A stretch of 56,459 nt of DNA, taken from the IMG/VR virus record IMGVR_UViG_3300044617_001663, positions 1 through 56,459 of that record. One strand, given 5' to 3'. The notes beneath the pieces are model-generated. The model had not been told where the DNA came from. It saw only the letters and a program-made list of their open reading frames with translations, and did no database searches. Origin of the DNA: a virus (Duplodnaviria; Caudoviricetes). Shown here piece after piece: positions 67-31,540 of the stretch. A program made the position numbers and the translations under genes. Positions within the stretch are counted from its first letter, which is position 1, and every line of letters starts with the position of its first letter.

Positions 67-1488
67 ATGACTTTTTCTCCTCTTGGAAATACAGTAGCTT
101 CATTTGATTCTATTCTACTTAAAATACCAGTATCAGATTCCAAAAAAGAAGAAGTTGATATTAGTGGTCAAGTAAGATTAGTAGAAGTATTTCAAAGTAT
201 ATACGAACCATTTGTTACAGGAAAAATGGTTGTACATGATGTATCTTCAACAAGATTAAGAAAAATAGGAAGTGGTGTTTTCGGACAAGGAGAAGAAATT
301 GATTTCTCCATAGTTCTTTTCATAGACAAATCGAGATTGGCTATAAAGGATTTTTGCATTTATAAAGTTGATAATACTATACTTGAAAACATTCCAGGAC
401 AAACAAATCCAAACGAAATATCAACATTTTACTTTTGCTCAAAGAAAATGATAGAAAATGAGTTTAGAAAAGTACGCAAAACATATACAGGAAAAATATC
501 TGAAATAGTAAAGCAAATTGGAGATGAATATGGTTTTGTTTTTGGTGAAATAGAACCAACAGATAAAAATTATAAAATAACAATACCAAGTTTAAACCCC
601 GCAGATGCCATAATGTGGTTAACTAAATTTGCTCAAAGAGAAAAAAATAAAAATGATGTAAATTATGTTTTTTATGAAAGTTTAAATCATTTCTTTTATT
701 TTAAATCTGTAGGTAGTATGTTGGAATCCTTGCCTTTGACTGAACAAGATGATGAATTCGGTATAAAAATAACAAACATAAATGTAAATGAAACGTCAAA
801 GGGTGTTTATGATAAAAATAGTCTTAATGCAAAAAGACATATTGGTAAATCAATATCTCCATTAGGAAATGCATTATCTGGAATGTATTCCTCTTTGGCT
901 CTTCAATTTGATATTACTTCAAAAACTTATTCTAGTACAACATTTTCTTATGATGAAAAATTCTCTGAAATGACACACCCAGAAGGATATGATAAAAAAA
1001 TAGTATCCGGACCAAAAGCATTAGTATTGAATCAAATATATGATTATCCAGAAAATAACGTATCTTATTATCCAAGATGCACATATTTGTATAAGAATAC
1101 AGGAAAAGGGTTTAAAAAAACATCTGGACCAAGAAGTGACAGAAAACTAACAGGTGGTTGTGTTCAACCAAAAAATGAAGAAACTCCTGTAAATTACATA
1201 CATGAAATAGCTCAAATTAGAAATAGTCAATTTCAATCAATAGATCAATTAGGGTTGACTGTAGAAATGAAAGGATTGTCTTTATTTAATTTAGGAAATA
1301 TGGTTTATTTCTCAAGAGCACAAATAGATTCTAGAGATCGATATTCTGATGGAAAAAGAGATAAATACTTTACTGGGTTGTTCTTGATAACAAATCTTAA
1401 GCAAACTTTCTTCCTGAATAGTACTGTTAAAGGACCAGATTTAAGAACAACTTTGACATTAAGAAAAGAATCGGAAAAACTACAATGA
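67..1488 (+). CDS. Baseplate hub / tail protein (gp27-like)
   Basis: 473 aa directly upstream of gp5. Motifs 'VDIS..V..VEVFQSIYEPFVTG', 'P..AIMWL', 'YVFYES...FYFKSV.SM' and C-terminal 'FTGLFLITNLKQTF' fit T4-like hub proteins. Confidence 0.6.
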   Translation: MTFSPLGNTVASFDSILLKIPVSDSKKEEVDISGQVRLVEVFQSIYEPFVTGKMVVHDVSSTRLRKIGSGVFGQGEEIDFSIVLFIDKSRLAIKDFCIYKVDNTILENIPGQTNPNEISTFYFCSKKMIENEFRKVRKTYTGKISEIVKQIGDEYGFVFGEIEPTDKNYKITIPSLNPADAIMWLTKFAQREKNKNDVNYVFYESLNHFFYFKSVGSMLESLPLTEQDDEFGIKITNINVNETSKGVYDKNSLNAKRHIGKSISPLGNALSGMYSSLALQFDITSKTYSSTTFSYDEKFSEMTHPEGYDKKIVSGPKALVLNQIYDYPENNVSYYPRCTYLYKNTGKGFKKTSGPRSDRKLTGGCVQPKNEETPVNYIHEIAQIRNSQFQSIDQLGLTVEMKGLSLFNLGNMVYFSRAQIDSRDRYSDGKRDKYFTGLFLITNLKQTFFLNSTVKGPDLRTTLTLRKESEKLQ

Positions 1489-2537
1489 GTGCATTTTTAG
1501 GTAAAGATGGATTCGCTTGGTTTTATGGTGTAGTTGAAAGCAGAAGTGATCCATTGCAACTCGGAAGAGTAAAAGTAAGAGTTTTTGGTTATCATCATGA
1601 AGATAAAAATGTCATGCCTACTGACTCTCTTCCTTGGGCTACTCCAATACAACCAGTAACATCTGCAAATATAAGCGGAATTGGACTCTCTTCAAATGGT
1701 CTTGTTGAAGGAACATGGGTAATAGGCTTTTGGGCTGATGTAAATAATTATCAAATTCCAATGATTCTTGGTGCAATATCAGGATTGAACAAAGAACCAG
1801 ATTCAATAAAAGAGAGAAAAGAAATGTATGGAAATGCTTTTAGAGATTTCCGTTCTGATTCTACTCTTAAAAAGCATCCTAAAAATAAATTTACAAAAAG
1901 AGAATATCCAGATGGAAAGGTAAAATCTGGTGATTCGCATGGTGCTCAAATAAAAAATGCAGATTCTGCAGAAAAGAATCCTAGAGAATTATATCAAGAT
2001 GGGGCTTGCTCCTTTCCAGAAGGAACTCCAGATACAAATGTTGTTGCTGTAAATGATCCACAAAGAATCGATGAAACAATAGTAAAAATAAAAAAAGATG
2101 CATTCCCTGGAGGATTAAGAGAAACTTTTGTTCCAGTTGCAGATGCACCAACTAAACAATTTTTTACTGGAATTATAAATGCAAGAGGAGTTAATAGAGG
2201 AACAAATAAAGGACTTGCATATCCTCCAAATCGTTTGAAATCAAGTTCCTGGGAATCACTAAAAACAAAATATAAATCTGTTTTAGAAAAACCAACAAAT
2301 GTGAATAAAAAATCTGTTTATGAAAATCAAACAAGTGTTGATTCTTTAGGAAATGTAATAGATGAAAAAACTGTTGATGGTCTTGATAAAATATTAAGTC
2401 CTTCTACATTACAGGAAAAAGTTAATTTTTTCAAAATTGATGAAAGTATAAACAAGTTAAATGAAAAAATTAATTCACCCATAACTACAGTTAAAGGTAA
2501 AGCAGAAACTACACTAAGAGATAATTTAAAGGGATAA
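1485..2537 (+). CDS. gp5: Central spike gp5, N-terminal OB-fold part
   Basis: WFYGVVESRSDPLQLGRVKVRVFGYH...LPWA...GTWVIGFW...PMILG is the gp5 OB-fold signature. No lysozyme motif recognised. Confidence 0.85.
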   Translation: MSAFLGKDGFAWFYGVVESRSDPLQLGRVKVRVFGYHHEDKNVMPTDSLPWATPIQPVTSANISGIGLSSNGLVEGTWVIGFWADVNNYQIPMILGAISGLNKEPDSIKERKEMYGNAFRDFRSDSTLKKHPKNKFTKREYPDGKVKSGDSHGAQIKNADSAEKNPRELYQDGACSFPEGTPDTNVVAVNDPQRIDETIVKIKKDAFPGGLRETFVPVADAPTKQFFTGIINARGVNRGTNKGLAYPPNRLKSSSWESLKTKYKSVLEKPTNVNKKSVYENQTSVDSLGNVIDEKTVDGLDKILSPSTLQEKVNFFKIDESINKLNEKINSPITTVKGKAETTLRDNLKG

Positions 2538-2538
2538 A

Positions 2539-4425
2539 ATGAGTACAGGAAATTGGTCAGAACCAGAAACATCATATGCTAAAGTTGAAGGGGTTGACGT
2601 AAAACCAGATGAAAAAACTGGTGCAACAATATATCCATTCAATAAAGTATATGAATCTGAATCCGGTCATTTAATAGAAATAGATGATACTGCCGGTTCT
2701 GAAAGATTATCCATTCATCATAGAACAGGAACGTTCGAAGAATATCATCCAAATGGAGATAAAGTAGTAAAAGTAGTAAGAGATAATTATACAAGTGTTT
2801 TGAGAGATGATTATGTTCATATTGACGGTTATTGCAATGTCACAATAGATAAGGCATTAAAGATATTAGTAAATAAGGATGAACTTCCAAATTCAAAAGA
2901 ACAAGCAGTAAATTTGGATATAGAAGTAGGAAAAAATGCAAATGTTAATTTAGTTATTAACAGAGGACAATGCAATATTCTATTGAAGGATGGAGATTTG
3001 AATGCCCAACTTCAAAAAGGAGATGTGAATTTACGTCAAGATAATGGTAATTACAACCATTTTATAAATGGAGATTATAATCTTGAAGTTACTGGGCATA
3101 TGCATGTTGTAACTGGAGGAAGTGTTGTAAATGAAATTGGCGGTGCAAGAGATATTCGTGTCGATGGACCATTTGATAATCTTGATGTAAAAGGATATAA
3201 GGAAACAGCAGTTGCAGGAAAAATGAATTATGCTGTTGGTGGTGGAATATTTGAAATTGTCGGTGGTTCATATGAAACCTCAATAGCAGGAAAAAGAGTA
3301 ATAAGAACTGGCGGTTCGGTACATGAAAAAAATGGAGGAAATCATTATATTGGTTGTCCTCAGTTTCACGTTGCAAGTGTTAGAGCATACATTTCAGGTT
3401 CTTCTGGTGTTGATTTCTGGTCACCAGGAAATCAAATGAGATTTGACGAGACTGGATTTGGTCTTAAAACCACAGGTAATGCTCTTTTTAATGCCTCAAA
3501 AATCCATTTTAATGGTCCTCCAGTTCCAGATGCAGATAGATCATCTCCTCCTATAGATGATCCAACTTTTTCTGTTGGTGCTGGTGGAGTGTGGAGAAAA
3601 TCTATAAACCACGAAAGAAATAGTGTTCTTGCATTGTTGACAACAATTGGTGAACTACAAAACATACAATCAAGACTGACAGAGTTGCAAGAAGTAAATA
3701 AATTAGCAGAAAATGCCTCTGCTGGTTTAAATGCTTCAATACAAAAATTGCAAGAAGTTTCTTCTCAATTAGAACTTGGAGCAATAAGCCCAGAACAAGC
3801 AAAAGCATTCATGACTGATGCTCAGAACGTTTTGGAATCGGCAAATAATCTGTCTATGAACATCTCTGATACAGTATCAACTGTAGGCACAGTATCCGAT
3901 CAAGCATCATCCACAATAGATTCTGCGCTATCAACAAGTGAAAATCTTATACAAAATAGCACAGGTGGCATAGGAAGTTCTATCAGTGATGTTTTTGATG
4001 GAGTAAAAAGCGGAATAGGTGGCATAACGGATTTCGTGGGGGGAATCGTTGGCGGAATACTTGATGTTGCATGTACAATATCAGATGCAATAAACAATGC
4101 AGTATCTGGTGTGTTTGGTGCTGTTGGGTCAGCAATAGGAAAAGTAATGGGGAGAATTGGACAGGCAATATCAGCAGTTACAGGAGCCATAGGCGGTATT
4201 ATATCAAAAGTTACTGGAGTTATAGGAACTGTATTTGGAAAAGTCGGTGAGATAATCGGAACTGTAACTGGGGCAATCGGAGGAGTTATTGGAGATGTTA
4301 TCGGTGGTCTTGGTGGAATTTTGGGTGGTTTTGGTGGAAGACCCGGAAACTGTGGTTTATCTTTGGGAATAGCAACTCCGGATTTTAATGTTGGTTTTGG
4401 AATTTCTAGGCAAAGTACTCTCTGA
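2539..4425 (+). CDS. gp5: Central spike gp5, C-terminal beta-helix part with a long Gly-rich extension
   Basis: EP..SY...YPFNKVYESESGHLIEIDDT..ERL..HRTGTFEEYHPNG, then V.G-type beta-helix repeats ending at 'KIHFN', then ~300 extra residues. Confidence 0.85.
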   Translation: MSTGNWSEPETSYAKVEGVDVKPDEKTGATIYPFNKVYESESGHLIEIDDTAGSERLSIHHRTGTFEEYHPNGDKVVKVVRDNYTSVLRDDYVHIDGYCNVTIDKALKILVNKDELPNSKEQAVNLDIEVGKNANVNLVINRGQCNILLKDGDLNAQLQKGDVNLRQDNGNYNHFINGDYNLEVTGHMHVVTGGSVVNEIGGARDIRVDGPFDNLDVKGYKETAVAGKMNYAVGGGIFEIVGGSYETSIAGKRVIRTGGSVHEKNGGNHYIGCPQFHVASVRAYISGSSGVDFWSPGNQMRFDETGFGLKTTGNALFNASKIHFNGPPVPDADRSSPPIDDPTFSVGAGGVWRKSINHERNSVLALLTTIGELQNIQSRLTELQEVNKLAENASAGLNASIQKLQEVSSQLELGAISPEQAKAFMTDAQNVLESANNLSMNISDTVSTVGTVSDQASSTIDSALSTSENLIQNSTGGIGSSISDVFDGVKSGIGGITDFVGGIVGGILDVACTISDAINNAVSGVFGAVGSAIGKVMGRIGQAISAVTGAIGGIISKVTGVIGTVFGKVGEIIGTVTGAIGGVIGDVIGGLGGILGGFGGRPGNCGLSLGIATPDFNVGFGISRQSTL

Positions 4426-4467: not shown

Positions 4468-5094
4468 ATGTCTTCAAATTCTTCTCTGTTTTTTGAAATA
4501 GGAATGGGTATCGTTTCCTTCTTAATGGGAGCATTTATAGCTCTATATACGTTTATAAAAAAAACACATAAAGAGAAAATTTCATCTAAAGTTTGTAATA
4601 AATTTACCAGAATTCACTCTTCAATAAATGAAATATTAACAGAATTGAGAATAAAGACAAATTCATCCAGAACTAGTTTAGTTCAATTTCATAATGGGGG
4701 TAACTTTCTAGATGGCACTTCAATATTAAAATTTTCGATAACCCATGAATCTTGTGATTTAGGAACTTCTTCAACAATAGACGGTCAACAAGCAATATTA
4801 TTAACAAGATTTACAGATAAACTTGAATTTTTACATGAAAATACTGCAAAAATTATAAAAACCAAAGAATTAGAAGGAAGTCATTTTAGAAATTATATGC
4901 AAAGTAGAGATGTGGTTGCTTTTATAATGGTTCCAATATATTGTGAGAAAAAAATTAATATAATAGGTTATATTTCATGTGAATGGTGCGATGAAAATTT
5001 GTTAAATAATGCAGTAGACGAGGAATACAGGTATATTGTAAAATATAATAGAAATATTATAACTGAACTGCTTTACAAACAAAAGGCAAACTGA
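4468..5094 (+). CDS. Single-TM protein with a GAF-like soluble domain, possible holin
   Basis: N-terminal hydrophobic helix (LFFEIGMGIVSFLMGAFIALYTFI) followed by basic residues. The C-terminal 'AFIMVPIY...IIGYISCEW' pattern is GAF-like. Has its own late promoter. Confidence 0.4.
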   Translation: MSSNSSLFFEIGMGIVSFLMGAFIALYTFIKKTHKEKISSKVCNKFTRIHSSINEILTELRIKTNSSRTSLVQFHNGGNFLDGTSILKFSITHESCDLGTSSTIDGQQAILLTRFTDKLEFLHENTAKIIKTKELEGSHFRNYMQSRDVVAFIMVPIYCEKKINIIGYISCEWCDENLLNNAVDEEYRYIVKYNRNIITELLYKQKAN

Positions 5095-11583: not shown

Positions 11584-14500
11584 ATGGCTTATAAGCACAA
11601 TGATTTGTTGAGTTTAAATCCTTATTTTGATGATTTTGACGATACAAAGAAATTTTTAAGAATTCTATTCAAACCTGGTTATTCGGTACAGGCTAGAGAA
11701 CTTACTCAATTACAAACTTTACTCCAAGACCAATTATCAAAATTGGGAAGTCATATATTTGAAGATGGTAGTCAAGTATTTGGTGGTGGTGTATCTTTAT
11801 CAAAGGCAAATTATCTAAGAGTAAAAGGAACTGCTACTTCTTCAGATCCTGTAAATTCAGATTTAACTTATTTTAAAAATAAAATTATACAAAAAACATC
11901 TTCAACTTCAATCAAAGCAAAAGTTGTCGAGGTCTTAACTCCAACAGAAGAAGATCCATTTACTATTTTTATATTACAATATTTAACTGGCACTGAATTT
12001 ACTGCCGGTGATACAATTTCAGTTGAAACACTAGAAAGTACATTCGTATCGTCTGGATTTACTGTAGCAACAAGATCCGAAATTGATTTCTATCAAAATA
12101 GTGATACTAGTTTTGGAAATACTTTAGTTGGTATTTCTGGTATAGCACACACTATAACTGTTGATGATGGAATATTTTATATTGATGGATTTTTTGTAAA
12201 ATCAACAAAACAATCAATTTCATTATTTAAATTATCAAAAGAAGATGATAATGAATTTGTTGATGATGTACAATATACTTTCAGCACTAGTGGAGTTCGT
12301 GTATTCTCATCCCCAACCAACAGAGTTGGATTTTCAATAGTAAGAAAAGCAGTAACATCAGATGAAGATTTAACACTTAAAGATCCTGCAAATGGTTCTT
12401 ACAATTTCAATGCTCCGGGTGCAGACAGATATGTAATAGATTTAGATATCCATAGTTTAGCATTCAGCAATATCGAAACAGATACTTCTTACTTAGTAAC
12501 TGAAGATTTTATAGAACTTGCTAGAATAGTTGAAGGAAAACTTGATTTTATCAGAAGAATTCCTTCATACTCTGATTTGCTTGAGGTATTCGCAAGAAGA
12601 ACATATGATGAATCTGGAAACTATACTGTAAAACCATTTACTCTAGAAGTTTATAATCATCTAAGAAAAGATAGATTTGTATTAGATCTAGTTTCCAAAG
12701 AAGAAATTCAAACAAATAACAATGCCATCAATTCTCCTTATCTTCCAATACCTGGAGATATTGTTCAATATAAAGAAGTAGAACCGGGGGCAGGCACAGT
12801 AGTAAAACAAGGAAGAATAATTTCAGTTGTAAAACTATCTAATAATCAACAAAATTCAACTGGAACTCTTGATGATATAATTTATAGAACAACAGTAAAA
12901 CTATTAGATAATACAACTCAACCATTTGAAATTAATGATCTAGTAACTTTATACGCATCTTTAGATGATACTACAAATGGTCCTGAAAATTCATCATATA
13001 ATGAAACTGTATATCAAGTTGAAAAAGTTGTAATCGACAGAGATGAAAGAGGAGCATATTCCAATTTAGAGGGTGCAACCCCTTCTGGCGATGACAACAA
13101 AATGGTTCTATCTGTCCAACCAGGAAAGGCATATGTATTTGGTTACGAATTTGAAACTATAAATTCAACAAACATATCAGTAGATAAGCCAAGAGAATTG
13201 GCATCTTTGAATGGTTATAATTTACCATCAAATATTGGTAATTATATGATGATTAAGGCAGAATCTTCAACTACTGGTTATCAATTCCCATTCTGGGGAA
13301 GAAAATTAGATCAAACATCAGGGTTGAATACATTATCTAGCGCAGAATTGGACAAGATTTATTTTGGTGCAAATTACAAGAGAATAACAATACCATATCA
13401 ACAAGATTTGTTTGCAACTCTTCCAGTAAAATATTGGTCGCCTTTGACTGCAATAGAGAGAAGCAACACTTGGGATAGCATTCTATTTGTATCATGTGCA
13501 TCTCAATTTAATTCCGATCCTCAATTAACATATGCACAAGATTGTGGAGATTTAGTTAAAACTGATGATCTTGAGGATTCAGACGGAACACTACCAGACA
13601 GATTCTCAAGACCTCAATCAGTAGAAGTAGAGATAGCAAAAAATATAGGTCAGGACAATGGTTCTAAGACTTACTATACCATGTCTGATATGTCTCCACA
13701 AACAGAATCAAATATCTCAAGATTGATGTTCACTGAACCTTATCATGGAGATTATGACGTAGCATACGTTCCAGATTTGCCGCAAACTATCACCGATACT
13801 GAATTGGCAGATGATTTTTATCTTGATGATGAAAAATATAGTGTATATCAAATTTTGAATTATTCTTCAAACAATACGCCAAATAGCATCAGAATAAGAA
13901 AAGGAAAAGCAGTGCGTTGGGTTCCTGCTTCTCCTCTTGGAGTTCAAACAAACAGTTCTCTCTTCATCAAGACAAGTTCTGGAAGTGATGCTCATGCATT
14001 TGGTGATGATGATCAAAATTATAATTTTAATATTGATGGTGGAGTTGTATTCCAAAATAGACAATCCGGAATTGTTGCAAATGCGATGCTTTCTTATGGT
14101 AGCAGCGTAAAAAGAATTTCACCAGTTGAAAACATTATAAAAATAACATTCACTAGTTATAACCCAGAATGTTTTGGTTCTTCTGATGAATGCAATACAG
14201 GTTCTTTCTCTGAGGGAGAAATTGTCACTCAACAATACAAAAGAAGAATAACCACAGATGATTATGAAGATGTAACAGCAAGAGGAGAAATTGTTGCTGT
14301 TAGCGTTCCTAACAATCCAACAAATTATGCAGGGTCTTCTAAACTCGTAGTTTACGTATCCACTGTTGGTGTTGATGACTTTGAGGAAAAGATTCAAACA
14401 CCAGTTGAGGATTATACTGGAACTGTCAATGATGTTTATGACATCAAAAATGTTGGTCCTGTAATCGGAAGTTGCGGTTGCTATGATGTAGAAAAAATAG

Positions 14501-17500
14501 AAGTATTGAATGGTGCTGATTGTGGTAGATTGATATTGGTAGAATTCAGAGAACCCGGTCAATTTGGAAATTATATTCCCGGAGCAGATGTTTATCAATA
14601 CAATATTTCAGAAATTCAAGATATTTTAGCAAATCCTGGATATGATTTTGCAATACAATCTTCGCTAGCTTTATCTGTAGGAAAAGTTGTAAAGTGGAAT
14701 TCCGGAAGTTCTATTCTTTATATTCTAGAAACAAGAAATAGATTTAAGATAGAGAATGGTATCATATATCAACTTGAAGGGACAGATGGCGAAGTAACAA
14801 TACCTGCTGTAAGATACGGCGGTAGGGGCTGGAATCGTTCAAAGAACATATTTGTCGAATCAAGCAATAATTACATTCCTGGTGGCGACAGTTCAGGAGA
14901 AGCAGGATATATTGAAAAAGTACAAGGCATCTTTATCAATATTAAACAACAATATCAAGCAGGAAAAGACTTCCTAGAGTATAAGGGAGTTGGAGAACTT
15001 ACTTCAGCATATCTCGCAAAACAAGTATACTCTCTTTCTGCCGATAATTATGTGCCTGGAAATGATTTCATAATTGGTGAACAAGTAAGACAAGAGCATT
15101 TAAATGTAAATACACTTGATGCTCCTTCTTTCTTCTCAACTGGAATAATTAGAGCTTGGAAGCACAGAGATCCTAATAATCCAGTAGATGATAGTCCAAC
15201 TATAATTCTAATTGAAAGAACAAATGACTTTGATTTTGCAGTAGGACCAAACAAAAAACCAGTAGTATCTGTAAATACTGGCGTATCATACAAAACCAGT
15301 CTGCTTGGTACAAAAATAGAAGATGAATTCATAGGAGAAGCAAGATTTAAGCAACTTGGAAGACAAACTCCAGAAGAATATAGACTGTTCTTTATGGATT
15401 CCAAGATGTATAATATTTTAGATACAAATGACAAATACCTCTTAGCAGAAACTAAGACAGTATATATTCTAGAAAATGAGAAATTTAAGAATTCATTCTA
15501 TAAGAAAATAGCAGATGTACATCCAGACCATAGAATTGTTGATACAAATAATGTAGGAAAAACAACAATTTATGATAGAGAGTCAAATTCTCTTCTATTC
15601 CCAATTCCAATTGGAGATGTAATCAAATCTGTATATGATATGGATTATAGAGTTCAAAAAGAAATATATCCAGATGAAGGTTCAAATTCTAAGAAATTGA
15701 CATTCACAGTAACTGGAACTAATTATCAATTTGTTGGTGGAAAATTAAATGGAAAAGTAGAAGCCACAGATTTATATGAACATTATATTTTGATTGAAGA
15801 GCCAGTAACAATTAAAGATTCTGCAAGAATTATTGATTTAATTACACAAAATTACTTGATTAAAACAAATAATTCAAATCCAGAATCGACTTCTTTTGCT
15901 CAACTGACTATTGAAAATATTAGTGGTAATTCATCTTTTGATTTTGATATCAATAATAAGAAATATCGCTTATATGCTACAATTGAGGTAGATCCAACAA
16001 ATTCTGTAAATGATTACAGAAGAAAAGTTGAAGAAAGATATTTCAATTCAGATGGTAATGCTTATTATGAGACTCAAATAAGGAAAGATGAAAATGGAAA
16101 TTATTACGGAATAATTCCAATCTCAGACGTTATTGAGATCGATAATATTGATTATTCAAACAATAACATAACAGATATTTTTGAATTTGACAATGGACAA
16201 ACAGATAATCTTTATGATTTTGCAAAAATTAAATTGAAGAAAGAATTTGAACTAGAATACTCATATCTTGAAAATAATACAGTTAAAGTATTCTTTAGGT
16301 ACTATAAGCATGTTGGTACTGGTCCATTCATTGTAAATTCGTACTCATCACTGAATGAGATTCCTCTTTATACGAGTCCATCAACGGGAAGTATTTACAG
16401 GCTAGATTCTTTTGTCGATTTCCGTCCTGTAAAGAAATTGAAATCTGATGCAGAATCTGTAGAGGACTATGAATTTGAATTCTTCGGAATTCCAAAGGCA
16501 TCGGAATCTTTCAATATTGATTATGATTATTATCTTGCTAGAAATTATAAATTAATGCTAACAAGAAATAAGAAATTCAAGATTGTAAACGGTCCTTCAT
16601 CCTTGGTCCCACAATTGCCAAGCGATGAAGAAAATTCAATGACATTGTTCAATATCGAATGTCCTCCATACGTATTTGACTGCAAGCAATGCAATATCAC
16701 AAATATAGATCATCAACGATATACAATGAAAGATATTGCAAATCTTGAAAAGAGAATTTCAAATATTGAGGAATTTGTCAAACTCAGCAATCTTGAAAAA
16801 GAAGCACAAACCACATTTGTTGATGATAGATTCAAGTCAGCAATTATAGTTGATGATTATTCAAGTCATAAAGTTGGTGAAATCAATAATACTGACTATA
16901 ACGTTTCAGTAGATTTTGACGAAAACACTTTAAGACCTCCAACTAGAACTTCAAATGTTGATTTGGAAGTAGACATAACAGAATCACAAAATATAAAATT
17001 GTCTGATAACTTTGTCACTTTAAATTACACAACTTCCTTGTTTGAGCAAAAACAACCATATGGCACATCAGAAATGATTGTAAACAGTGGAGATGTCATT
17101 CAATGGATTGGTAATATGAAGTTGTCTCCAAATTCAGATTCTTGGTTTGATAACAAAATTGCACCAGATGTTATTAGTAATAATAATGGTACAAATGATA
17201 TAATGTACAAAAATCCAAGAATAAGCAAAGATCTCATTCAACAATTAGAAAAGAAATATGATTATTGGACTTCTCTCTGGAAAGGAAAACCACTTCCAAA
17301 AGAAGCAAATGAACTTAAGAATTTCATAACGATGCTCAAGGGTGAGGCTTTAGTTGTCCCACAACCAAATGACAAAATAGTTTGGAAACGAGTATCTGTA
17401 CAATTAGAGCCAACTATTATTCGATCAACAAGAAAAGGAACTATTTACGAAGCAAATAGAAAAACATATTCTATACCAGTAAGAGTTCCATCAACTGATG

Positions 17501-19161
17501 TTATAGTTGATAAAAGTGTTGTTCCATTCATGAGAACAAGAGACATCACCGTAAATGCAACAGGAATGAAGCCAAACTGCAGAGTGTATGCATTCTTTGA
17601 CAATATCAGCGTCGATGATAATTGCACTCAAGCAAATGCAGTTGTGGTTGGAAATCTTCAAACAAATTCATTTGGGGAGATTCAATTCACATTCAAGATT
17701 CCAGAAGGTAAGTTCAGAACTGGAGAAAAACTACTAGTAATAACAGATAGTTCAACAAATAATCCAAATAATGCCACAACAATTGCTGAAGCAATTTACA
17801 ATTCTAGTGGTGTAACTCAGAATAAGTCTGATCTTTATCTTTCTACTCGTCTTGCAAAGAAAGCAGCAGCAAACATCTCATATGATGAGATGGATCCCAT
17901 GGCTCAAACCTTCTTTGTAGATGAAGCAACTTATCCAAATGGAATTTTTGTAGATTCTGTAGTATTGTTCTTCTCAAGCAAGGATACAAATTTACCAATA
18001 ACATTGGAATTGCGTCCAGTCAACAGTGGAGTTCCATCATCAGGTAAGAACCTATTAGTATATCCTGGTGCTTCTGTAACATTGAATCCAGATTCAATTA
18101 CAACTACAACTATTCCAAGTTTGGTAAATTCAAATGGTTCAACTATATTTAAATTTGATCATCCAATACACTTGTTGCCCGGAGAACATGCAATAGTTCT
18201 CAAGACAAATAGCGCAAATTACAAAGTTTATGTTGCTATTCCCGGACAAACAGTTATTGAATCTGGAAGTTTATTGACAAACAATGCATATAAAGGTTCA
18301 TTCTACAAGCCTCAAAATGCGTCACAATGGACTCCAGATCAAGATACAGATCTGATGTTTGGTATTCAAAAATGTTCATTCGAAACAACAGGACAGGTAA
18401 TATTCAAAGAATCTTCAAATAATGATTCTTTGGTTGAATATGATTTATTCAATCTTACATGCCCAAATATTAATTTCGACAAGAACATTTCCTTCAAGAT
18501 CAAGACCATGAAGAAAGATTCTAATACTCTTGATTCTGAATATACTGAAATAGTTCCAGAAATTAATATATCACAAAGACAAACCAAGATTGCCAAAAAC
18601 AATGGTCAAAGCGTCAAGGTGAGAGTTGATTTGGAATCAGATGGAATTGTATCCCCAATTTTTGATGTTGATCGAATCAACATGATTGCAGTCAAGAATC
18701 TTATCGATTCAAACGATACAGTAGATAAGACCAGTGTAAATTACAACGGAGAATTGAATCCCAAAGGCAATGCACCGGAGAAGTCACCAAATGGAACTGT
18801 AGACACTCCAAGAGTTCGTTACATTAGCAAATTGGTTACCCTTGAAGAGGGAATTGATGCAAATAATGTAAATGTAATTTTGGATGTAAATAAGCCAGAG
18901 GGAACAAACATCCAAGTATTTGTTAAATGGCAAGGAGCAGGAAAAGACGCTTCGTTTGATGACGAGCCATATTATCAATTAATACCTGATAAGAAGGATC
19001 TCATAACTTATGATTCCAACACATATGAATCTGTAAAATATACTTTACCAGAAGATACAAAGGAATCTTTTGTTAAATTCTCAATAAAGATATGTCTATA
19101 CTCCTCTAATTCATCAATTGTTCCAACAGTCAAGAATATGAAAGTGATTGCAGTCGTATGA
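11584..19161 (+). CDS. Large virion/baseplate structural protein (VrlC / DUF4815-like)
   Basis: PYFDDFD..K.F.RILFKPGYSVQARELTQLQTLLQDQ; APGADRY; ARRTYDESGNYTVKPF; RYTMKDI..LEKRI; DPMAQTF. Confidence 0.85.
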   Translation: MAYKHNDLLSLNPYFDDFDDTKKFLRILFKPGYSVQARELTQLQTLLQDQLSKLGSHIFEDGSQVFGGGVSLSKANYLRVKGTATSSDPVNSDLTYFKNKIIQKTSSTSIKAKVVEVLTPTEEDPFTIFILQYLTGTEFTAGDTISVETLESTFVSSGFTVATRSEIDFYQNSDTSFGNTLVGISGIAHTITVDDGIFYIDGFFVKSTKQSISLFKLSKEDDNEFVDDVQYTFSTSGVRVFSSPTNRVGFSIVRKAVTSDEDLTLKDPANGSYNFNAPGADRYVIDLDIHSLAFSNIETDTSYLVTEDFIELARIVEGKLDFIRRIPSYSDLLEVFARRTYDESGNYTVKPFTLEVYNHLRKDRFVLDLVSKEEIQTNNNAINSPYLPIPGDIVQYKEVEPGAGTVVKQGRIISVVKLSNNQQNSTGTLDDIIYRTTVKLLDNTTQPFEINDLVTLYASLDDTTNGPENSSYNETVYQVEKVVIDRDERGAYSNLEGATPSGDDNKMVLSVQPGKAYVFGYEFETINSTNISVDKPRELASLNGYNLPSNIGNYMMIKAESSTTGYQFPFWGRKLDQTSGLNTLSSAELDKIYFGANYKRITIPYQQDLFATLPVKYWSPLTAIERSNTWDSILFVSCASQFNSDPQLTYAQDCGDLVKTDDLEDSDGTLPDRFSRPQSVEVEIAKNIGQDNGSKTYYTMSDMSPQTESNISRLMFTEPYHGDYDVAYVPDLPQTITDTELADDFYLDDEKYSVYQILNYSSNNTPNSIRIRKGKAVRWVPASPLGVQTNSSLFIKTSSGSDAHAFGDDDQNYNFNIDGGVVFQNRQSGIVANAMLSYGSSVKRISPVENIIKITFTSYNPECFGSSDECNTGSFSEGEIVTQQYKRRITTDDYEDVTARGEIVAVSVPNNPTNYAGSSKLVVYVSTVGVDDFEEKIQTPVEDYTGTVNDVYDIKNVGPVIGSCGCYDVEKIEVLNGADCGRLILVEFREPGQFGNYIPGADVYQYNISEIQDILANPGYDFAIQSSLALSVGKVVKWNSGSSILYILETRNRFKIENGIIYQLEGTDGEVTIPAVRYGGRGWNRSKNIFVESSNNYIPGGDSSGEAGYIEKVQGIFINIKQQYQAGKDFLEYKGVGELTSAYLAKQVYSLSADNYVPGNDFIIGEQVRQEHLNVNTLDAPSFFSTGIIRAWKHRDPNNPVDDSPTIILIERTNDFDFAVGPNKKPVVSVNTGVSYKTSLLGTKIEDEFIGEARFKQLGRQTPEEYRLFFMDSKMYNILDTNDKYLLAETKTVYILENEKFKNSFYKKIADVHPDHRIVDTNNVGKTTIYDRESNSLLFPIPIGDVIKSVYDMDYRVQKEIYPDEGSNSKKLTFTVTGTNYQFVGGKLNGKVEATDLYEHYILIEEPVTIKDSARIIDLITQNYLIKTNNSNPESTSFAQLTIENISGNSSFDFDINNKKYRLYATIEVDPTNSVNDYRRKVEERYFNSDGNAYYETQIRKDENGNYYGIIPISDVIEIDNIDYSNNNITDIFEFDNGQTDNLYDFAKIKLKKEFELEYSYLENNTVKVFFRYYKHVGTGPFIVNSYSSLNEIPLYTSPSTGSIYRLDSFVDFRPVKKLKSDAESVEDYEFEFFGIPKASESFNIDYDYYLARNYKLMLTRNKKFKIVNGPSSLVPQLPSDEENSMTLFNIECPPYVFDCKQCNITNIDHQRYTMKDIANLEKRISNIEEFVKLSNLEKEAQTTFVDDRFKSAIIVDDYSSHKVGEINNTDYNVSVDFDENTLRPPTRTSNVDLEVDITESQNIKLSDNFVTLNYTTSLFEQKQPYGTSEMIVNSGDVIQWIGNMKLSPNSDSWFDNKIAPDVISNNNGTNDIMYKNPRISKDLIQQLEKKYDYWTSLWKGKPLPKEANELKNFITMLKGEALVVPQPNDKIVWKRVSVQLEPTIIRSTRKGTIYEANRKTYSIPVRVPSTDVIVDKSVVPFMRTRDITVNATGMKPNCRVYAFFDNISVDDNCTQANAVVVGNLQTNSFGEIQFTFKIPEGKFRTGEKLLVITDSSTNNPNNATTIAEAIYNSSGVTQNKSDLYLSTRLAKKAAANISYDEMDPMAQTFFVDEATYPNGIFVDSVVLFFSSKDTNLPITLELRPVNSGVPSSGKNLLVYPGASVTLNPDSITTTTIPSLVNSNGSTIFKFDHPIHLLPGEHAIVLKTNSANYKVYVAIPGQTVIESGSLLTNNAYKGSFYKPQNASQWTPDQDTDLMFGIQKCSFETTGQVIFKESSNNDSLVEYDLFNLTCPNINFDKNISFKIKTMKKDSNTLDSEYTEIVPEINISQRQTKIAKNNGQSVKVRVDLESDGIVSPIFDVDRINMIAVKNLIDSNDTVDKTSVNYNGELNPKGNAPEKSPNGTVDTPRVRYISKLVTLEEGIDANNVNVILDVNKPEGTNIQVFVKWQGAGKDASFDDEPYYQLIPDKKDLITYDSNTYESVKYTLPEDTKESFVKFSIKICLYSSNSSIVPTVKNMKVIAVV

Positions 19162-27064: not shown

Positions 27065-29071
27065 ATGGGATTCCAAGTTAGCCCCGGTGTAGAAATTAAA
27101 GAATTCGATTTAACAGCCATCGTTCCTGCTGTTACAACAACCCCTGCTGGTTTCGTAGGAGCCTTTGAGTGGGGTCCTACAGAGCAAAGAGTTTTAATAA
27201 ATAGCGAAAAAACTCTAAGAGAAACATTTTTTAAGCCATCTAGAAATGAATTTTATTCAACTTCTTGGTTTGTTGCCCAAAACTTTTTAACATATGGCAG
27301 CAATTTACTTGTTGGAAGAGTTCTCTTAGATAATGATACAAATGCATTCTGCCCTGGTTCTAATTGGAGAGATGCATCAGGAAATGTTACAATTCCTTCA
27401 GGCGAATCAGTATTAATCAAAAATAGACAAGATTTTGAAGAATTATACGGTGAAAAAATCAAAGGAACTTGGGATTTCACCTTTGCTGCAAAATATCCAG
27501 GTCTTCTTGGAAATGGTATTAAAGTAATTGTTTATGATATCAAAGAAGATCAATTTGATAGAGATAATTTATCATCAACTGTTTGGGGTCAAAGATCAAT
27601 AGATCCAGAAGATGCAGATATTATCATAGGATATGTAAACAAACAAGCCCCAAATACAAGTTCATATGCTGCAAATATACTTGCTGGTGCAGAGGATGAA
27701 ATACACGTAGTTGTAGTAGACTCTTTAGGAAAAATTACAGGAAGTAAAAACACAGTATTGGAAACCTATTTAGGTCTATCTAAAGCTCCAAGTGCTAAAA
27801 ATCCAGATGGAAGCACAAATTATTGGAGAAATGTAATTAATAACAAATCTCTTTACATTTGGGCCGGTGAAAGTCCTTATCTTGAGGAAGTAGCAGAACT
27901 AGACCCATCAGAACCTAATCAAGTAGATAAACCAATAAGTGGTGGAGTTGCTAGTTCTGGTAAGCCACCTTTACAATTCTATGGTGCAATAACAGGAGAA
28001 AAAGCACAAAAAATAGGAGAAAATTATAATTTAATTCTTTCCGCAACTACAGGTCACATCGACTGGGATGAAGAAGTTAGTATATCTTTCCCATATGATA
28101 GATGTGGTATTATGGTCCACGAATTGGATTATGGTACATTAACATCAGTCGTTACTTCTGGTGATAGAATGGATGCAGAAGCAAATGTTGCCGCAACATT
28201 TGAACAATTATTCGGTGATACTGAAGAAGTTGACGTATCACTACTCATCGCTGGTGATTTGAGAAATGAAGTAAACAACAATACAATAATTGCTTTGGCA
28301 GAGAAAAGAAAGGATTGCGTTACATTCGTTTCTCCATCTACCAGTGCAATAATTGAAGCAGCACCAGCAGACAGAGCAAATATAGTATTGAGTTATAGAA
28401 ATGGAACAGATGGATATGTTGGAATAACATCATCTTCATACGCAGTCATGGATAGCGGTCCAAAGTATCAATATGATCGTTACAATGACCGTTTCATATA
28501 CGTTCCAATGTGTGGTGATATCGCAGGATGCTGTGTAAGAACAGACACAACGAGAGATCCTTGGTATTCGCCTGCAGGATATGATCGTGGTCGTATCAAC
28601 AATATCGTTAAATTGGTTTACAATCCAAATAAGGAAGAACGTGATTTACTATACCAAAAAGGTGTAAATCCTGTAGTAACTTTCCAAGGATCTGGTGCAA
28701 TTCTTTTCGGTGATAAGACTCTTCAATTGAAGGCATCTGCTTTTGATAGAATCAATGTACGCCGTCTCTTCATCGTTCTAGAGAAGGCAATTGCAACAGC
28801 AGCCAAGTTCCAATTGTTCGAATTCAACGATGCATTCACTCGTAATCAATTCAGACAATTAGTTGAACCATTCCTCCGTGACGTACAAGGTCGTAGAGGC
28901 ATCAGTTCATACGCAGTTGTTTGCGATGAAAGCAACAATCCTCCAAGCATAATTGATTCTAACCAATTCGTTGCTGACATCTTTGTTGCTCCTGCTCGTA
29001 GCATCAATTTCATTAAGTTGAACTTTGTTGCTACACCAACAGGAATACAATTTGCTGAATTTGGTGGATAA
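27065..29071 (+). CDS. gp18: Tail sheath protein gp18
   Basis: FQVSPGVEIKEFDLT; PWYSPAG..RG; FGDKT; SAFDRINVRRLF; PARSINFI.LNFVAT. Confidence 0.97.
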   Translation: MGFQVSPGVEIKEFDLTAIVPAVTTTPAGFVGAFEWGPTEQRVLINSEKTLRETFFKPSRNEFYSTSWFVAQNFLTYGSNLLVGRVLLDNDTNAFCPGSNWRDASGNVTIPSGESVLIKNRQDFEELYGEKIKGTWDFTFAAKYPGLLGNGIKVIVYDIKEDQFDRDNLSSTVWGQRSIDPEDADIIIGYVNKQAPNTSSYAANILAGAEDEIHVVVVDSLGKITGSKNTVLETYLGLSKAPSAKNPDGSTNYWRNVINNKSLYIWAGESPYLEEVAELDPSEPNQVDKPISGGVASSGKPPLQFYGAITGEKAQKIGENYNLILSATTGHIDWDEEVSISFPYDRCGIMVHELDYGTLTSVVTSGDRMDAEANVAATFEQLFGDTEEVDVSLLIAGDLRNEVNNNTIIALAEKRKDCVTFVSPSTSAIIEAAPADRANIVLSYRNGTDGYVGITSSSYAVMDSGPKYQYDRYNDRFIYVPMCGDIAGCCVRTDTTRDPWYSPAGYDRGRINNIVKLVYNPNKEERDLLYQKGVNPVVTFQGSGAILFGDKTLQLKASAFDRINVRRLFIVLEKAIATAAKFQLFEFNDAFTRNQFRQLVEPFLRDVQGRRGISSYAVVCDESNNPPSIIDSNQFVADIFVAPARSINFIKLNFVATPTGIQFAEFGG

Positions 29072-29116: not shown

Positions 29117-29875
29117 ATGGCAGACTCATCAATCAATTCCTTCATGTCGGCATTTGACGGCGGCGCAAAACCAAATCTTTACTCTGTAAATGTTTCTTGC
29201 CCTGCCCTTGGTAATGCTTTTCAAAATCTTCAGTTCTTTTGTAGAGCAACCACTCTCCCTTCCTCACAATTAGGAGAGATTGTATTACCATATCTTGGTC
29301 GTATGGCTAAGTATCCCGGTGACCGTTTTTATGATCCATGGTCAATTACTGTAATCAATACTCAAGACATGCAATTAAGAAAAGTATTTGAATATTGGAA
29401 TGAATTGTTTAATTCACATGCAGGAAACGTTTCTGCATCAACAAATCCAAGACAACTTTTTGGTGGTGCAACAATTACACAATTGGCTCGTAATTATCAA
29501 CCAGTTCGTTCATATTTCTTAGCAGAAGTTTATCCTTCAGCAATAAGCCCAGTCGGAATGGGTTTCGCTGATGATAACGTAATATCAGAATTTGAAGTTA
29601 CATTAACATATTCATATTTCATCACAGATACCTCTGCTGCAGTCAATGGGGTTGGAATATTCAGCGGAAATCCACTTGCCAATCCCGGAGCAATTGGTGG
29701 TGGCGCTCCTGCTGGCGCAATTCCTGCATTCGGTGGTGTAGGTGGTCTAGGTGGAGGATTTGGTCTACCTGGAGCATTTGGACAATCCAGTTCAGGTGGC
29801 TTCTCTTTCCAAAATAAGAACTTCGGATTCAGCATTGGCGGAAGCAATTCCAGCTTTGGTTCAGGTATAGGATAA
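29117..29875 (+). CDS. gp19: Tail tube protein gp19 with a Gly/Phe-rich C-terminal extension
   Basis: GGAKPNLY; F.CRAT.LP.S.LG.I..PY.GR..K.PGDR....W..TV.N; EFEVT..Y.YF, then ~84 extra residues. Confidence 0.93.
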   Translation: MADSSINSFMSAFDGGAKPNLYSVNVSCPALGNAFQNLQFFCRATTLPSSQLGEIVLPYLGRMAKYPGDRFYDPWSITVINTQDMQLRKVFEYWNELFNSHAGNVSASTNPRQLFGGATITQLARNYQPVRSYFLAEVYPSAISPVGMGFADDNVISEFEVTLTYSYFITDTSAAVNGVGIFSGNPLANPGAIGGGAPAGAIPAFGGVGGLGGGFGLPGAFGQSSSGGFSFQNKNFGFSIGGSNSSFGSGIG

Positions 29876-29917: not shown

Positions 29918-31540
29918 ATGGCTTTCAAATTATTCGGGTACAGTTTTACCAAAGAATCAAAAGAAAATTTAATATCTTTCGTTCCGGAAGATCTAAATGA
30001 TGGCTCATCGATTATCGCAGCAGGCGGTACGATGGGCTATTATGTAGATCTTGATGGAACAATTCGTAGTGATATAGAATTAATAAAAAGATATAGAGAA
30101 ATGTCTCTCCATGCAGAGATTGAACTTGCAATTGATGATATTATAAATGAAGCAATTGCAGATGATGCTACGGGAAGATATGTAACTTTAGATCTAGATA
30201 AAACAAATCTTCCTCCTATCATAAGACAAATTATAATTGAAGAATTTGAAAGAATTTTAACTTTATTAAATTTTAATCGTTATGGAAAAGAACTTTTCCG
30301 TAAATGGTATATCGATGGTAGATTATATTTTCATAAAATATTAGGAGATGATCCAAGAGAAGGAATTAAAGAATTAAGACAAATTGATCCCATCTACATC
30401 AAAAAAGTAAGAGAAGTTAGAAAGAATGATCAAGTTCTTGGAGTACCAGTTGTAGAGCAAGTCGATGAATATTATTTGTTTTCTGCATTTGAAAAATCAA
30501 ATGCATATGATACTCAAGGATTGAAGATTTCGGTAGATTCTATTTCATATTGCCATTCTGGTCTTTACGATGCGCAATCTAAACGTGTGGTAGGCTATCT
30601 TCACAAAGCAATCAAGCCACTCAATCAATTAAGAATGATTGAAGATGCTACAGTCATTTATCGCATATCCCGTGCTCCAGAAAGAAGAGTATTTTACATA
30701 GACGTAGGTTCTCTACCAAAAAATAAAGCAGAACAATATCTTCGTGATATTATGAATAAGTTCCGCAATAAAGTTGTTTATGATGCAGCAACCGGAGAAG
30801 TTCGTGATGATCGTAAACATATGCACATGTTAGAAGATTTCTGGCTTCCACGTAGAGAAGGTGGTCGTGGTACTCAAATTGAAACTCTTCCTGCAGGACA
30901 AAATCTAGGAGAGATGGGCGATGTTCTTTATTTTCAAAAGAATTTATGGAGGGCATTAAATATCCCAATGACTCGTATGGAAGCCGAAAATGGTTTCAAT
31001 ATGGGAAGATCCTCCGAAATTACAAGAGATGAATTAAAATTCTCAAAATTTATTAATTCATTAAGAATGAAATTTTCAGATTTCTTTCTTGATATTCTCA
31101 AAACTCAATTACTTGCAAAACAAGTTATGAGTCAAGAGGATTGGGAGGCAATAGAACAAAAAATTACGTTTGTTTTTTCGACCGATTCATACTTTACAGA
31201 ATCAAAACAAGCAGAAATAATGAAAGATCGTCTTGCAATGCTTAGAGATGCTGCTGACTTTGTAGGAAGATATTACTCTGAAAGATGGGTAAGAAAGAAT
31301 ATTCTACGTCAAACAGAAGATGATATAGATGAAATGAACGCCGAAATTGAAGTAGATAGGCAAAAAGAACTTGAGAGACAACAACAAGAAATGGCTATGC
31401 AAGCAGAACAACAAGCTCAAATGCAACAGCAACAACAGGGAGCCCCTGCAGAAGGTCAAGAGCAAACTCCAACCGGAGAAGCGACTGCAACTTCCTCTAC
31501 ATTAGGAGAAATAGTTTTCGATGCCAGCAGCTTACTATGA
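29918..31540 (+). CDS. gp20: Portal protein gp20
   Basis: FRKWYIDGRL; YLHKAIKPLNQLRMIEDA.VIYRISRAPERRVFYIDVG; MLEDFWLPRREGGRGT. Confidence 0.98.
   Translation: MAFKLFGYSFTKESKENLISFVPEDLNDGSSIIAAGGTMGYYVDLDGTIRSDIELIKRYREMSLHAEIELAIDDIINEAIADDATGRYVTLDLDKTNLPPIIRQIIIEEFERILTLLNFNRYGKELFRKWYIDGRLYFHKILGDDPREGIKELRQIDPIYIKKVREVRKNDQVLGVPVVEQVDEYYLFSAFEKSNAYDTQGLKISVDSISYCHSGLYDAQSKRVVGYLHKAIKPLNQLRMIEDATVIYRISRAPERRVFYIDVGSLPKNKAEQYLRDIMNKFRNKVVYDAATGEVRDDRKHMHMLEDFWLPRREGGRGTQIETLPAGQNLGEMGDVLYFQKNLWRALNIPMTRMEAENGFNMGRSSEITRDELKFSKFINSLRMKFSDFFLDILKTQLLAKQVMSQEDWEAIEQKITFVFSTDSYFTESKQAEIMKDRLAMLRDAADFVGRYYSERWVRKNILRQTEDDIDEMNAEIEVDRQKELERQQQEMAMQAEQQAQMQQQQQGAPAEGQEQTPTGEATATSSTLGEIVFDASSLL

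Follow-up and report, generated by a model that had tools for sequence, protein, structure and literature searches.

The central spike and tail tube genes

The window analysed here is the whole of the IMG/VR virus record IMGVR_UViG_3300044617_001663, a stretch of 56,459 bases with a G + C content of 32.6% and an estimated completeness of 31%. It contains the structural genes of a myophage distantly related to T4. The subject of this report is the C-terminal part of two of its proteins, the central spike protein gp5C and the tail tube protein gp19. The nearest cultured phages are about 30–36% identical to them, and this over the core domains only (residues 6–268 of gp5C and 1–183 of gp19). The original prediction, made from the DNA sequence alone, held that both proteins end in one hydrophobic hairpin pattern after a long Gly-rich linker, a tethered beta-hairpin that could form a membrane beta-barrel or engage a host envelope factor. 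Both proteins do carry C-terminal additions, which are lineage-specific and have no counterpart in the orthologues of T4 and of cyanophages.

The spike protein gp5 is encoded by two abutting genes on the plus strand, the first ending with a stop codon at position 2537 and the second starting with an ATG at 2539. The split lies close to the position at which T4 gp5 is cleaved in maturation. The upstream gene (1485..2537) encodes the N-terminal OB domain, recognized by Pfam Gp5_OB with 60.9 bits (cut-off 25) and by PHROG 430 with an E-value of 9e-44. The downstream gene (2539..4425) encodes gp5C, a protein of 628 amino acids that matches PHROG 430 (E = 2e-38) and, by tblastn, the gp5 proteins of T4-like phages at 29–32% identity over residues 6–268; its score against Pfam Gp5_trimer_C, 20.9 bits, is under the cut-off of 30.9. 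Pfam and PHROG scans of the two genes revealed no lysozyme family; such a domain is not a defining feature of a spike. With its beta-helix homology and a partner gene for the Gp5 OB domain, gp5C is a central spike of the T4 gp5 type.

Only the beta-helix of gp5C (2539..3558, plus strand, residues ~1–340) is matched by the gp5 of cultured phages. Its conserved block ends with IHxNGP, and a conserved Pro-rich joint comes after it. The next segment, also on the plus strand, is a heptad coiled coil (3601..3948, residues ~355–470) with a hydrophobic period of 3.5, in which AlphaFold2 (AF2) places helices at residues 359–412 and 418–475 with low confidence. It is succeeded on the same strand by a helix rich in Gly, Ile and Val (3949..4338, residues ~471–600) that has a period of 3.6–3.7 and is arranged in hendecads, or rows of 11, resembling those of tape measure proteins. 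The last segment (4351..4422, plus strand) consists of Cys605, which sits in the motif GGRPxNCG, and a variable tip peptide (CGLSLGIATPDFNVGFGISRQSTL). The AF2 model of the whole of gp5C has low confidence throughout, with a mean predicted local distance difference test score (pLDDT) of 48, and was used for secondary structure only.

Two cysteines, Cys512 (4072–4074) and Cys605 (4351–4353), are invariant in 29 of 29 aligned gp5C sequences. They are 93 residues apart and flank the hendecad helix. Many of the tips that belong to the same type as that of the window (type A, see below) have a third cysteine (CGISLALC). The invariant pair and the extra cysteine of the tip point to a disulfide bond or a bound metal in the distal region.

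PHROG families of tape measure proteins match residues 363–601 of gp5C with E-values of about 1e-10, down to 2e-10. When this region was searched against 5.8 billion proteins, the two closest orthologues and three weak outside matches were recovered, one of the latter with Pfam TMP_3; the ESM Atlas gave helical look-alikes below threshold only. That the extension is the tape measure of this phage was considered and dropped: its point of attachment is the far end of the beta-helix, and the outside homology is weak. The PHROG matches are read as a likeness between periodic helices and not as a sign of a tape measure.

The extension and its tip vary among relatives. Complete gp5C-like open reading frames (ORFs) in viral contigs number 70, half of which (35) are short and lack the extension while the other 35 are long. 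The tips of the long ones are of type A in 17 cases, type C in 11 with two more that are C-like, type B in three and type D in one, and the remaining one has no cysteine. The tip of the window protein is of type A (CG[LI]S[LV][GA]...). In the AF2 model it takes the shape of a small hairpin, with very low confidence; the strands are residues 609–613 and 616–620, five residues each, with a pLDDT below 30. In one homologue of 843 amino acids (P0094), about 190 extra residues come after the invariant cysteine, starting with a Gly/Tyr/Phe-rich stretch (YGYYGYGSGFGGGGGGFG); therefore, the position after the cysteine takes whole modules. The tip peptide is exchangeable, with types A to D and a whole domain in one relative. 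It is also under purifying selection. Between two pairs of loci with type-A tips, the numbers of identical, synonymous and nonsynonymous codons were 18, 4 and 2 (L033/L044) and 9, 12 and 3 (L018/L032), a substitution ratio that resembles that of the preceding helix.

The tail tube gene, gp19, is found at 29117–29875 on the plus strand and encodes 252 amino acids. It lies between the genes for the sheath (27065–29071) and the portal (29918–31540), which is the T4-type position. Its first part is a complete tube domain of T4-type fold, a beta-sandwich plus a helix (29117..29632, plus strand, residues 1–172), as found by profile, Foldseek and PHROG comparisons. A profile built from 29 relatives aligned, over its positions 12–168, with residues 9–162 of the 163 residues of T4 gp19 (E = 1e-27). 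The match to PHROG 45 had an E-value of 5.8e-45, and that to Pfam PF06841 scored 17.3 bits, under the cut-off of 28.2. Foldseek searches with the core of the predicted model returned T4 and Klebsiella-phage tube structures (9ev2, E = 4e-11; 5w5f, E = 1.9e-10, TM-score by target 0.63). By sequence, fold and gene position, gp19 is a T4-type tail tube protein. Since profile and fold align with nearly all of T4 gp19, the tube domain is complete by about residue 172, which leaves ~80 residues as an addition.

These residues consist of a Gly-rich linker that is predicted to be disordered (29633..29791, plus strand, residues 173–225, AF2 pLDDT 26–44) and of terminal repeat units of the SFG type, GGFSFQNKNFGFSIGGSNSSFGSGIG (29792..29872, plus strand). 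In the AF2 model the tube domain has a pLDDT of 70–86, against roughly 30 over residues 173–252, and the tail has no predicted structure. Glycine makes up 37% of the last 60 residues, a content approached in the window only by gp5C and by a collagen-like fibre. The Gly-rich tail is a constant feature of the closer relatives. Among 49 viral-contig loci with gp19 at ≥48% identity, three run off their contigs, and all 46 complete ORFs have the tail. Among 31 loci at ≤41% identity it is absent from all 25 complete ORFs (178–205 amino acids); the rows left out of this group are L152 and L164 (not extracted), L154, L155 and L166 (off contig) and L165 (truncated-looking). In a tree of 53 tube domains the tail-bearing proteins form one clade (support 99/98) with a single change.

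Within this clade the linker differs between subclades in both length and sequence. All tail-bearing relatives have two to four terminal SFG-type units, for example TSIAFGINTGSTSFGFGIST and GFSFGYGNGNSSFGVGF, located at the very C-terminus and of the form [ST]-S-F-G-φ-x-T/G-G, where φ is a hydrophobic residue. The units have an alternating pattern of hydrophobic and small residues with about eight residues per strand. In one subclade (L106, L122 and L134) the tail is less Gly-rich and has three to four tandem units SFG[IV][NQ]T with short G/N/S spacers between them. Comparison of the window with one relative (L087) showed, for the last 30 codons, 16 identical, 13 synonymous and 1 nonsynonymous; for the first 168 codons the numbers were 99, 45 and 24. 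With 13 synonymous changes to 1 nonsynonymous, as against 45 to 24 in the tube domain, the end peptide is the best-kept part of gp19 and under strong purifying selection. Codon comparisons that were out of register from indels were excluded (L089/L097, L024/L028, the upstream part of L027/L030, L016/L023, L006/L002 and L012/L004).

This pattern bears on whether the Gly-rich tails are a functionless spacer, or products of slippage that are tolerated at C-termini. The variable linker and the lack of an AF2 structure would agree with that, and a tandem-repeat search of the tail DNA did find micro-repeats of 9 and 18 bases in the gp19 linker; in the motif regions the same search found none. A tail kept in every complete close relative, and the 13 to 1 ratio over its terminal 30 codons, argue the opposite. 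Moreover, a profile of 26 gp19 tails run against 1.84 billion representatives matched no other protein family. It retrieved four proteins at E ≤ 0.001, of which three are gp19 of the same clade or a fragment and one is a 63-residue scrap; none is gp5C. The ESM Atlas returned only small viral clusters for the gp19 tail and no usable lead. Because of the selection pattern, the functionless spacer is largely refuted and we consider it highly improbable. A variable, flexible linker with a strongly conserved terminal peptide has the look of a tethered contact peptide, and contacts within the virion are the most likely ones.

Resemblance between the two terminal peptides

The original prediction compared a 13-residue peptide of gp5C, LGIATPDFNVGFG (4363..4401, plus strand, residues 609–621 of 628), with one of gp19, FSFQNKNFGFSIG (29801..29839, plus strand, residues 229–241 of 252). 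Both are found at these positions, and in both the residues at 1, 3, 8, 10 and 12 are hydrophobic, those at 7–8 are D/N-F and that at 13 is glycine. The proteins do not end in these peptides, as had been said: seven residues (ISRQSTL) come after the one in gp5C and 11 (GSNSSFGSGIG) after the one in gp19. A long Gly-rich linker was thought to precede both. This is correct for gp19 (residues ~173–225), whereas in gp5C the supposed tether is a helical domain of 11-residue periodicity (hydrophobic period 3.6–3.7, residues 470–600).

In this genome the pair does not exceed chance. It has two identities in 13 positions and a BLOSUM62 score of 10, and was beaten by 1000 of 1000 shuffles; the best 13-mer pair in each of these shuffled tail pairs scored from 19 to 54, with a mean of 31.3. 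Among the 56,790 stop-free 13-mers in six frames of the window, the pattern matches these two sites only, which says little because the pattern was written from them. It is also rare in shuffles (3 and 1 of 5000), with the same proviso that it derives from the two sites. Its conservation in homologues is poor. Of the 61 gp19 homologues 8 have the pattern, as do 4 of the 46 loci with a gp19 tail; for gp5C it is present in 2 of 33 long homologues and none of 35 long loci. In its exact form it is kept only in the nearest relatives. The 13-residue match is by itself no evidence, and the anatomy that surrounds it is real and unusual.

A different pair, VIGGLGGILGGFG of gp5C (within 4285–4338) and AFGGVGGLGGGFG of gp19 (within 29720–29770), is the highest-scoring real 13-mer match of the two tails. 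Its score of 47 is reached by 0.4% of shuffles, and it consists purely of Gly-rich sequence. Since gp5C orthologues have D, A or S where the hendecad helix of the window has G, it is the lineage of the window that has made both proteins more Gly-rich.

A different picture was obtained at the level of families, using cross-family profiles built without the predicted pair. A hidden Markov model (HMM) of 18 positions, made from 44 non-redundant gp19 tail ends, scored 5–14 bits on the type-A tips of gp5C. Ten of 16 type-A tips exceeded 95% of their own shuffles, as did none of 17 tips of the other types (B–D). The tip of the window scored 7.1 bits, which 0.7% of its shuffles reached. Such a score is rare in natural background, where 10 of 19,894 segments of 24 residues (83,111 residues) had at least 7.1 bits, all of them Gly-rich stretches. 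On the whole of gp5C the same HMM found a 7-residue match of 0.6 bits, the best outside gp19 among 45 proteins of the window, the next being at -0.9.

The reciprocal HMM, made from 16 type-A tips of gp5C, gave 9–19.7 bits on the gp19 tails of the FGINTG subclade, compared with a maximum of 8.6 bits in natural background, and 27 of 62 gp19 tails exceeded 95% of their shuffles. Only between type-A tips and the tails of this subclade, a sister to that of the window, is the resemblance significant. The GFSFGYGNGN subclade was not matched. The gp19 of the window scored 1.3 bits, a value reached by 18% of shuffles, so the window's own tail does not stand out from shuffled ones. We also scanned 760 six-frame ORFs from the window and two other records (G004 and G001) with this HMM. 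The two type-A gp5C proteins were followed by the gp19 tail of G004 with 15.2 bits, and the next score was 3.6. No third protein with the terminal unit was found among these ORFs.

It might be argued that such a resemblance arises by chance between low-complexity ends rich in Gly, Ser and aromatic residues that share φ-G-φ, and that the tails have unrelated roles. All of the matches are indeed short and Gly-rich. The predicted pair scores under every shuffle, the best real pair and the background matches of the gp19-tail HMM are Gly-rich sequence, the whole-protein match of gp5C stands at just 0.6 bits against -0.9 for the next, and the library-wide search with the gp19 tail fails to reach gp5C. 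Composition alone, however, would not readily account for the 10 of 16 type-A tips and 27 of 62 gp19 tails that beat composition-matched shuffles, nor for scores of 15–19.7 bits, about twice the natural-background maximum. In addition, in both proteins it is the unit at the extreme C-terminus that is matched. Chance is in our judgement a doubtful explanation.

Part of the clade does show a real likeness that is short and order-specific: φ-[SA]-φ-G-φ, a turn of four to six residues, and φ-G-φ. In the genome studied here the likeness has decayed to what chance would give, and there is no strict co-occurrence. The cross-family match rises above shuffles and background for type-A tips of gp5C and FGINTG tails of gp19, and not for the gp19 of the window or for tips of types B–D. 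A codon comparison of the tail-coding regions of gp19 and gp5C gave no sign of recent copying between them.

Joint occurrence and interpretation

Both genes are present in six records. Three of these (the window, G001 and G004) have the extension of the spike as well as the tail of the tube protein, and the other three (G005, G007 and G008) have neither; in the latter, gp19 has 177–181 residues and stops at the tube domain. Five further long records with gp19 yielded no gp5C and hence no more pairs. The gp5C extension takes two changes on an unresolved tree, and a single origin is possible. Because the gp19 tail has a single origin and the gp5C extension possibly so, the association may rest on one event. 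Via the paired records, the gp5C branch with type-A tips can be assigned to the gp19 branch in which the window and the FGINTG tails are found. In the sister gp19 branch the partners are type-C tips, unlike the FG units of that branch; in G001, for instance, a gp19 tail of FG type occurs with a gp5C tip of type C. Co-occurrence is therefore seen for the whole extensions but is not strict for the terminal module on the same genomes.

These results can be set against the proposal that both of the parts that enter the envelope bear, on flexible or extended supports, a shared recognition or association peptide. After contraction it would bind a common partner, either an envelope component or itself, and would anchor or seal the tube or help to breach the membrane. 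The reciprocal HMM scores above shuffles and background speak for such a peptide, as does the G004 gp19 tail, the sole other match to the gp5C-tip HMM in the three records scanned; purifying selection acts on both peptides, and type-A tips pair with the gp19 branch that bears similar units. The window's own pair, however, fails all tests not built from that pair. The joint presence in three of three records and joint absence in three of three also fit, yet a single origin can explain them, the effective sample being about one. Furthermore, G001 has a dissimilar tip, non-A tips occur in 18 of 35 long gp5C loci, and none of the four proteins found by the gp19-tail profile in the whole library is gp5C. 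The predicted strands of five residues are short for a membrane barrel, and no exchange is apparent at the DNA level. We think a shared peptide of this kind unlikely.

In a more far-reaching version, the tube tails and the spike extension would be two halves of one envelope-crossing device. The spike would be a needle, lengthened by a coiled coil, with an exchangeable tip and the tube would be coated by ~100 or more Gly-rich tethers; after contraction, a common short beta-hairpin peptide on both would bind a shared envelope target or zip to itself, and so anchor and seal the tube. This we regard as quite improbable.

The reading that we prefer, and to which we give an even chance of being right, is that gp19 and gp5C of one uncultured T4-like myophage clade each have a lineage-specific C-terminal appendage, the two being distinct and not one demonstrated shared system. 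Since the known C-terminal add-ons of the tube fold are all outside the tube, we infer that the gp19 tails lie at the tube/sheath interface. By analogy, they would emerge on the outer face of the tube in the extended tail, and contraction of the sheath would bare those on the pushed-out part of the tube. The terminal units may form short beta-strand contacts on flexible tethers, most likely holding neighbouring tube rings or the inner sheath. They would act while the tail is assembled and once it is loaded, and would be comparable to the SPP1 and 80alpha C-arm or to the Goslar extension. In gp5C the coiled coil, with heptads and then Gly/Ile/Val hendecads, prolongs the spike past the beta-helix to the invariant cysteine and the tip. 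The tip is hairpin-like in the branch of the window, and three copies, with the nearby cysteines, probably form the closure at the far end of a trimeric helical needle. The resemblance between gp5C and gp19 could reflect two independent arrivals at one small structural solution, or an ancient common unit that has diverged in this genome.

Several observations weigh against two separate appendages. The exterior location of the gp19 tails is drawn by analogy, and such an add-on is absent from T4 gp19. At ~50 residues, the linker far exceeds what a C-arm would need, and ~480 extra residues per ring would have to fit between tube and sheath. The AF2 confidence for both termini is under 30–40. Some matches across the families are stronger than simple convergence might predict: gp19 of one homologue (P0060, SLGLSIGGTSFGL) matches gp5C of another (P0070, SLGLSVGGTSVGI), and a further gp19 (P0018, GINTGNFSFGIATSR) is identical to gp5C of the window (GIATPDFNVGFGISR) at 7 of 15 positions. 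Finally, the resemblance follows phylogeny, type-A tips going with the look-alike gp19 branch, a pattern that shared function would explain no less well than convergence.

The way in which a contractile tail keeps its naked tube held and sealed in the envelope, and gets it past the inner membrane, is still poorly understood. In a large and purely metagenomic T4-like clade, every tube subunit has gained a conserved peptide borne by a long flexible tether, and the spike has gained a helical extension of ~290 residues with an exchangeable tip. If both additions work together, they would represent a novel means of getting through the envelope or of sealing it. Otherwise, the tube tails would still form an unusual disordered brush in the tube/sheath interface, which is relevant to models of sheath assembly and sliding.

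The remainder of the structural module comprises genes for a hub-type protein, gp25, gp6 and further wedge proteins, neck proteins, the terminase and prohead proteins. Between gp5C and gp25 there is an ORF of 208 amino acids (4468–5094) with a hydrophobic helix at its N-terminus, whose PHROG matches are to families of unknown function only. A giant ORF of 2525 amino acids in the baseplate and fibre region (11584–19161) matches PHROG 358 and 877, both of unknown function. An ORF of 976 amino acids (32031–34961), located between a small post-portal ORF and the prohead protease, ends in ...NSGGFGGSI and has no PHROG match at E = 1e-5. The collagen-like (Gly-X-Y) tail fibre ORF at 54455–56459 is 25% Gly and continues past the end of the record.

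Comparison with known systems

The gp19 of the window is like T4 gp19 (PDB 5W5F / 5IV5; Pfam PF06841) in its fold, in the position of its gene between sheath and portal and in the near-full alignment of the two. The gp19 proteins of T4 and of cyanophages stop at the end of the tube domain, whereas here there are ~84 extra C-terminal residues, Gly-rich and predicted to be disordered, with SFG-type units. Additions to the tube fold are known from other phages. A review on tube proteins describes immunoglobulin-like domains, a C-arm and a beta-sheet extension on the tube exterior (PMC8718954), and for phage Goslar a C-terminal extension of the tube protein (gp217) is described that threads into the layers above (Goslar preprint). 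The C-arm of SPP1 gp17.1 and 80alpha gp53 and the extension of Goslar gp217 are likewise C-terminal pieces past the tube fold with contacts outside the barrel (PMC8718954; Goslar preprint). Those pieces are short and ordered; here, in contrast, a Gly-rich linker of ~50 residues lies between the tube domain and the conserved units.

A similar Gly-rich C-terminal part with aromatic and polar residues is found in the polyglycine-II receptor-binding domains of S16 gp38 and Pam3 gp24 (PMC9942802). These fibre-tip domains are among the nearest known uses of such Gly-rich sequence in tails. They are folded lattices at the tips of fibres, whereas the Gly pattern here is mostly G-x-G-x, AF2 gives no fold and the carrier is a tube subunit. 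A polyglycine-II domain of the gp38 type was considered for the gp19 tail and dropped, the G-x-G-x pattern and the lack of a fold in the AF2 model making it improbable.

The spike shares with T4 gp5 a homologous beta-helix and a Gp5_OB partner. It differs in having ~290 further residues, made up of the coiled coil, the hendecad helix, the two invariant cysteines and the exchangeable tip. With tape measure proteins it shares the PHROG matches over residues 363–601 and hendecad periodicity; the tape measure, however, is a separate protein inside the tube, whereas the gp5C segment is joined to the spike at its far end.

Cohesive low-complexity repeats of FG type are known from nucleoporins (FSFG/GLFG) and from low-complexity aromatic-rich kinked segments (LARKS), with FSFG, GFG and SFG motifs set in Gly/Ser/Asn-rich spacers. 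The gp19 tail is like them in composition and motif only. In full-text searches of the openly accessible literature we found neither a Gly-rich tail on a myophage tube protein nor a coiled-coil extension on a gp5-type spike. Taken with the systems above, the gp19 tail and the gp5C extension are a variant of known parts: on every tube subunit, a tethered end peptide that is clade-wide and under selection, and on the spike a long helical extension that swaps its tip.

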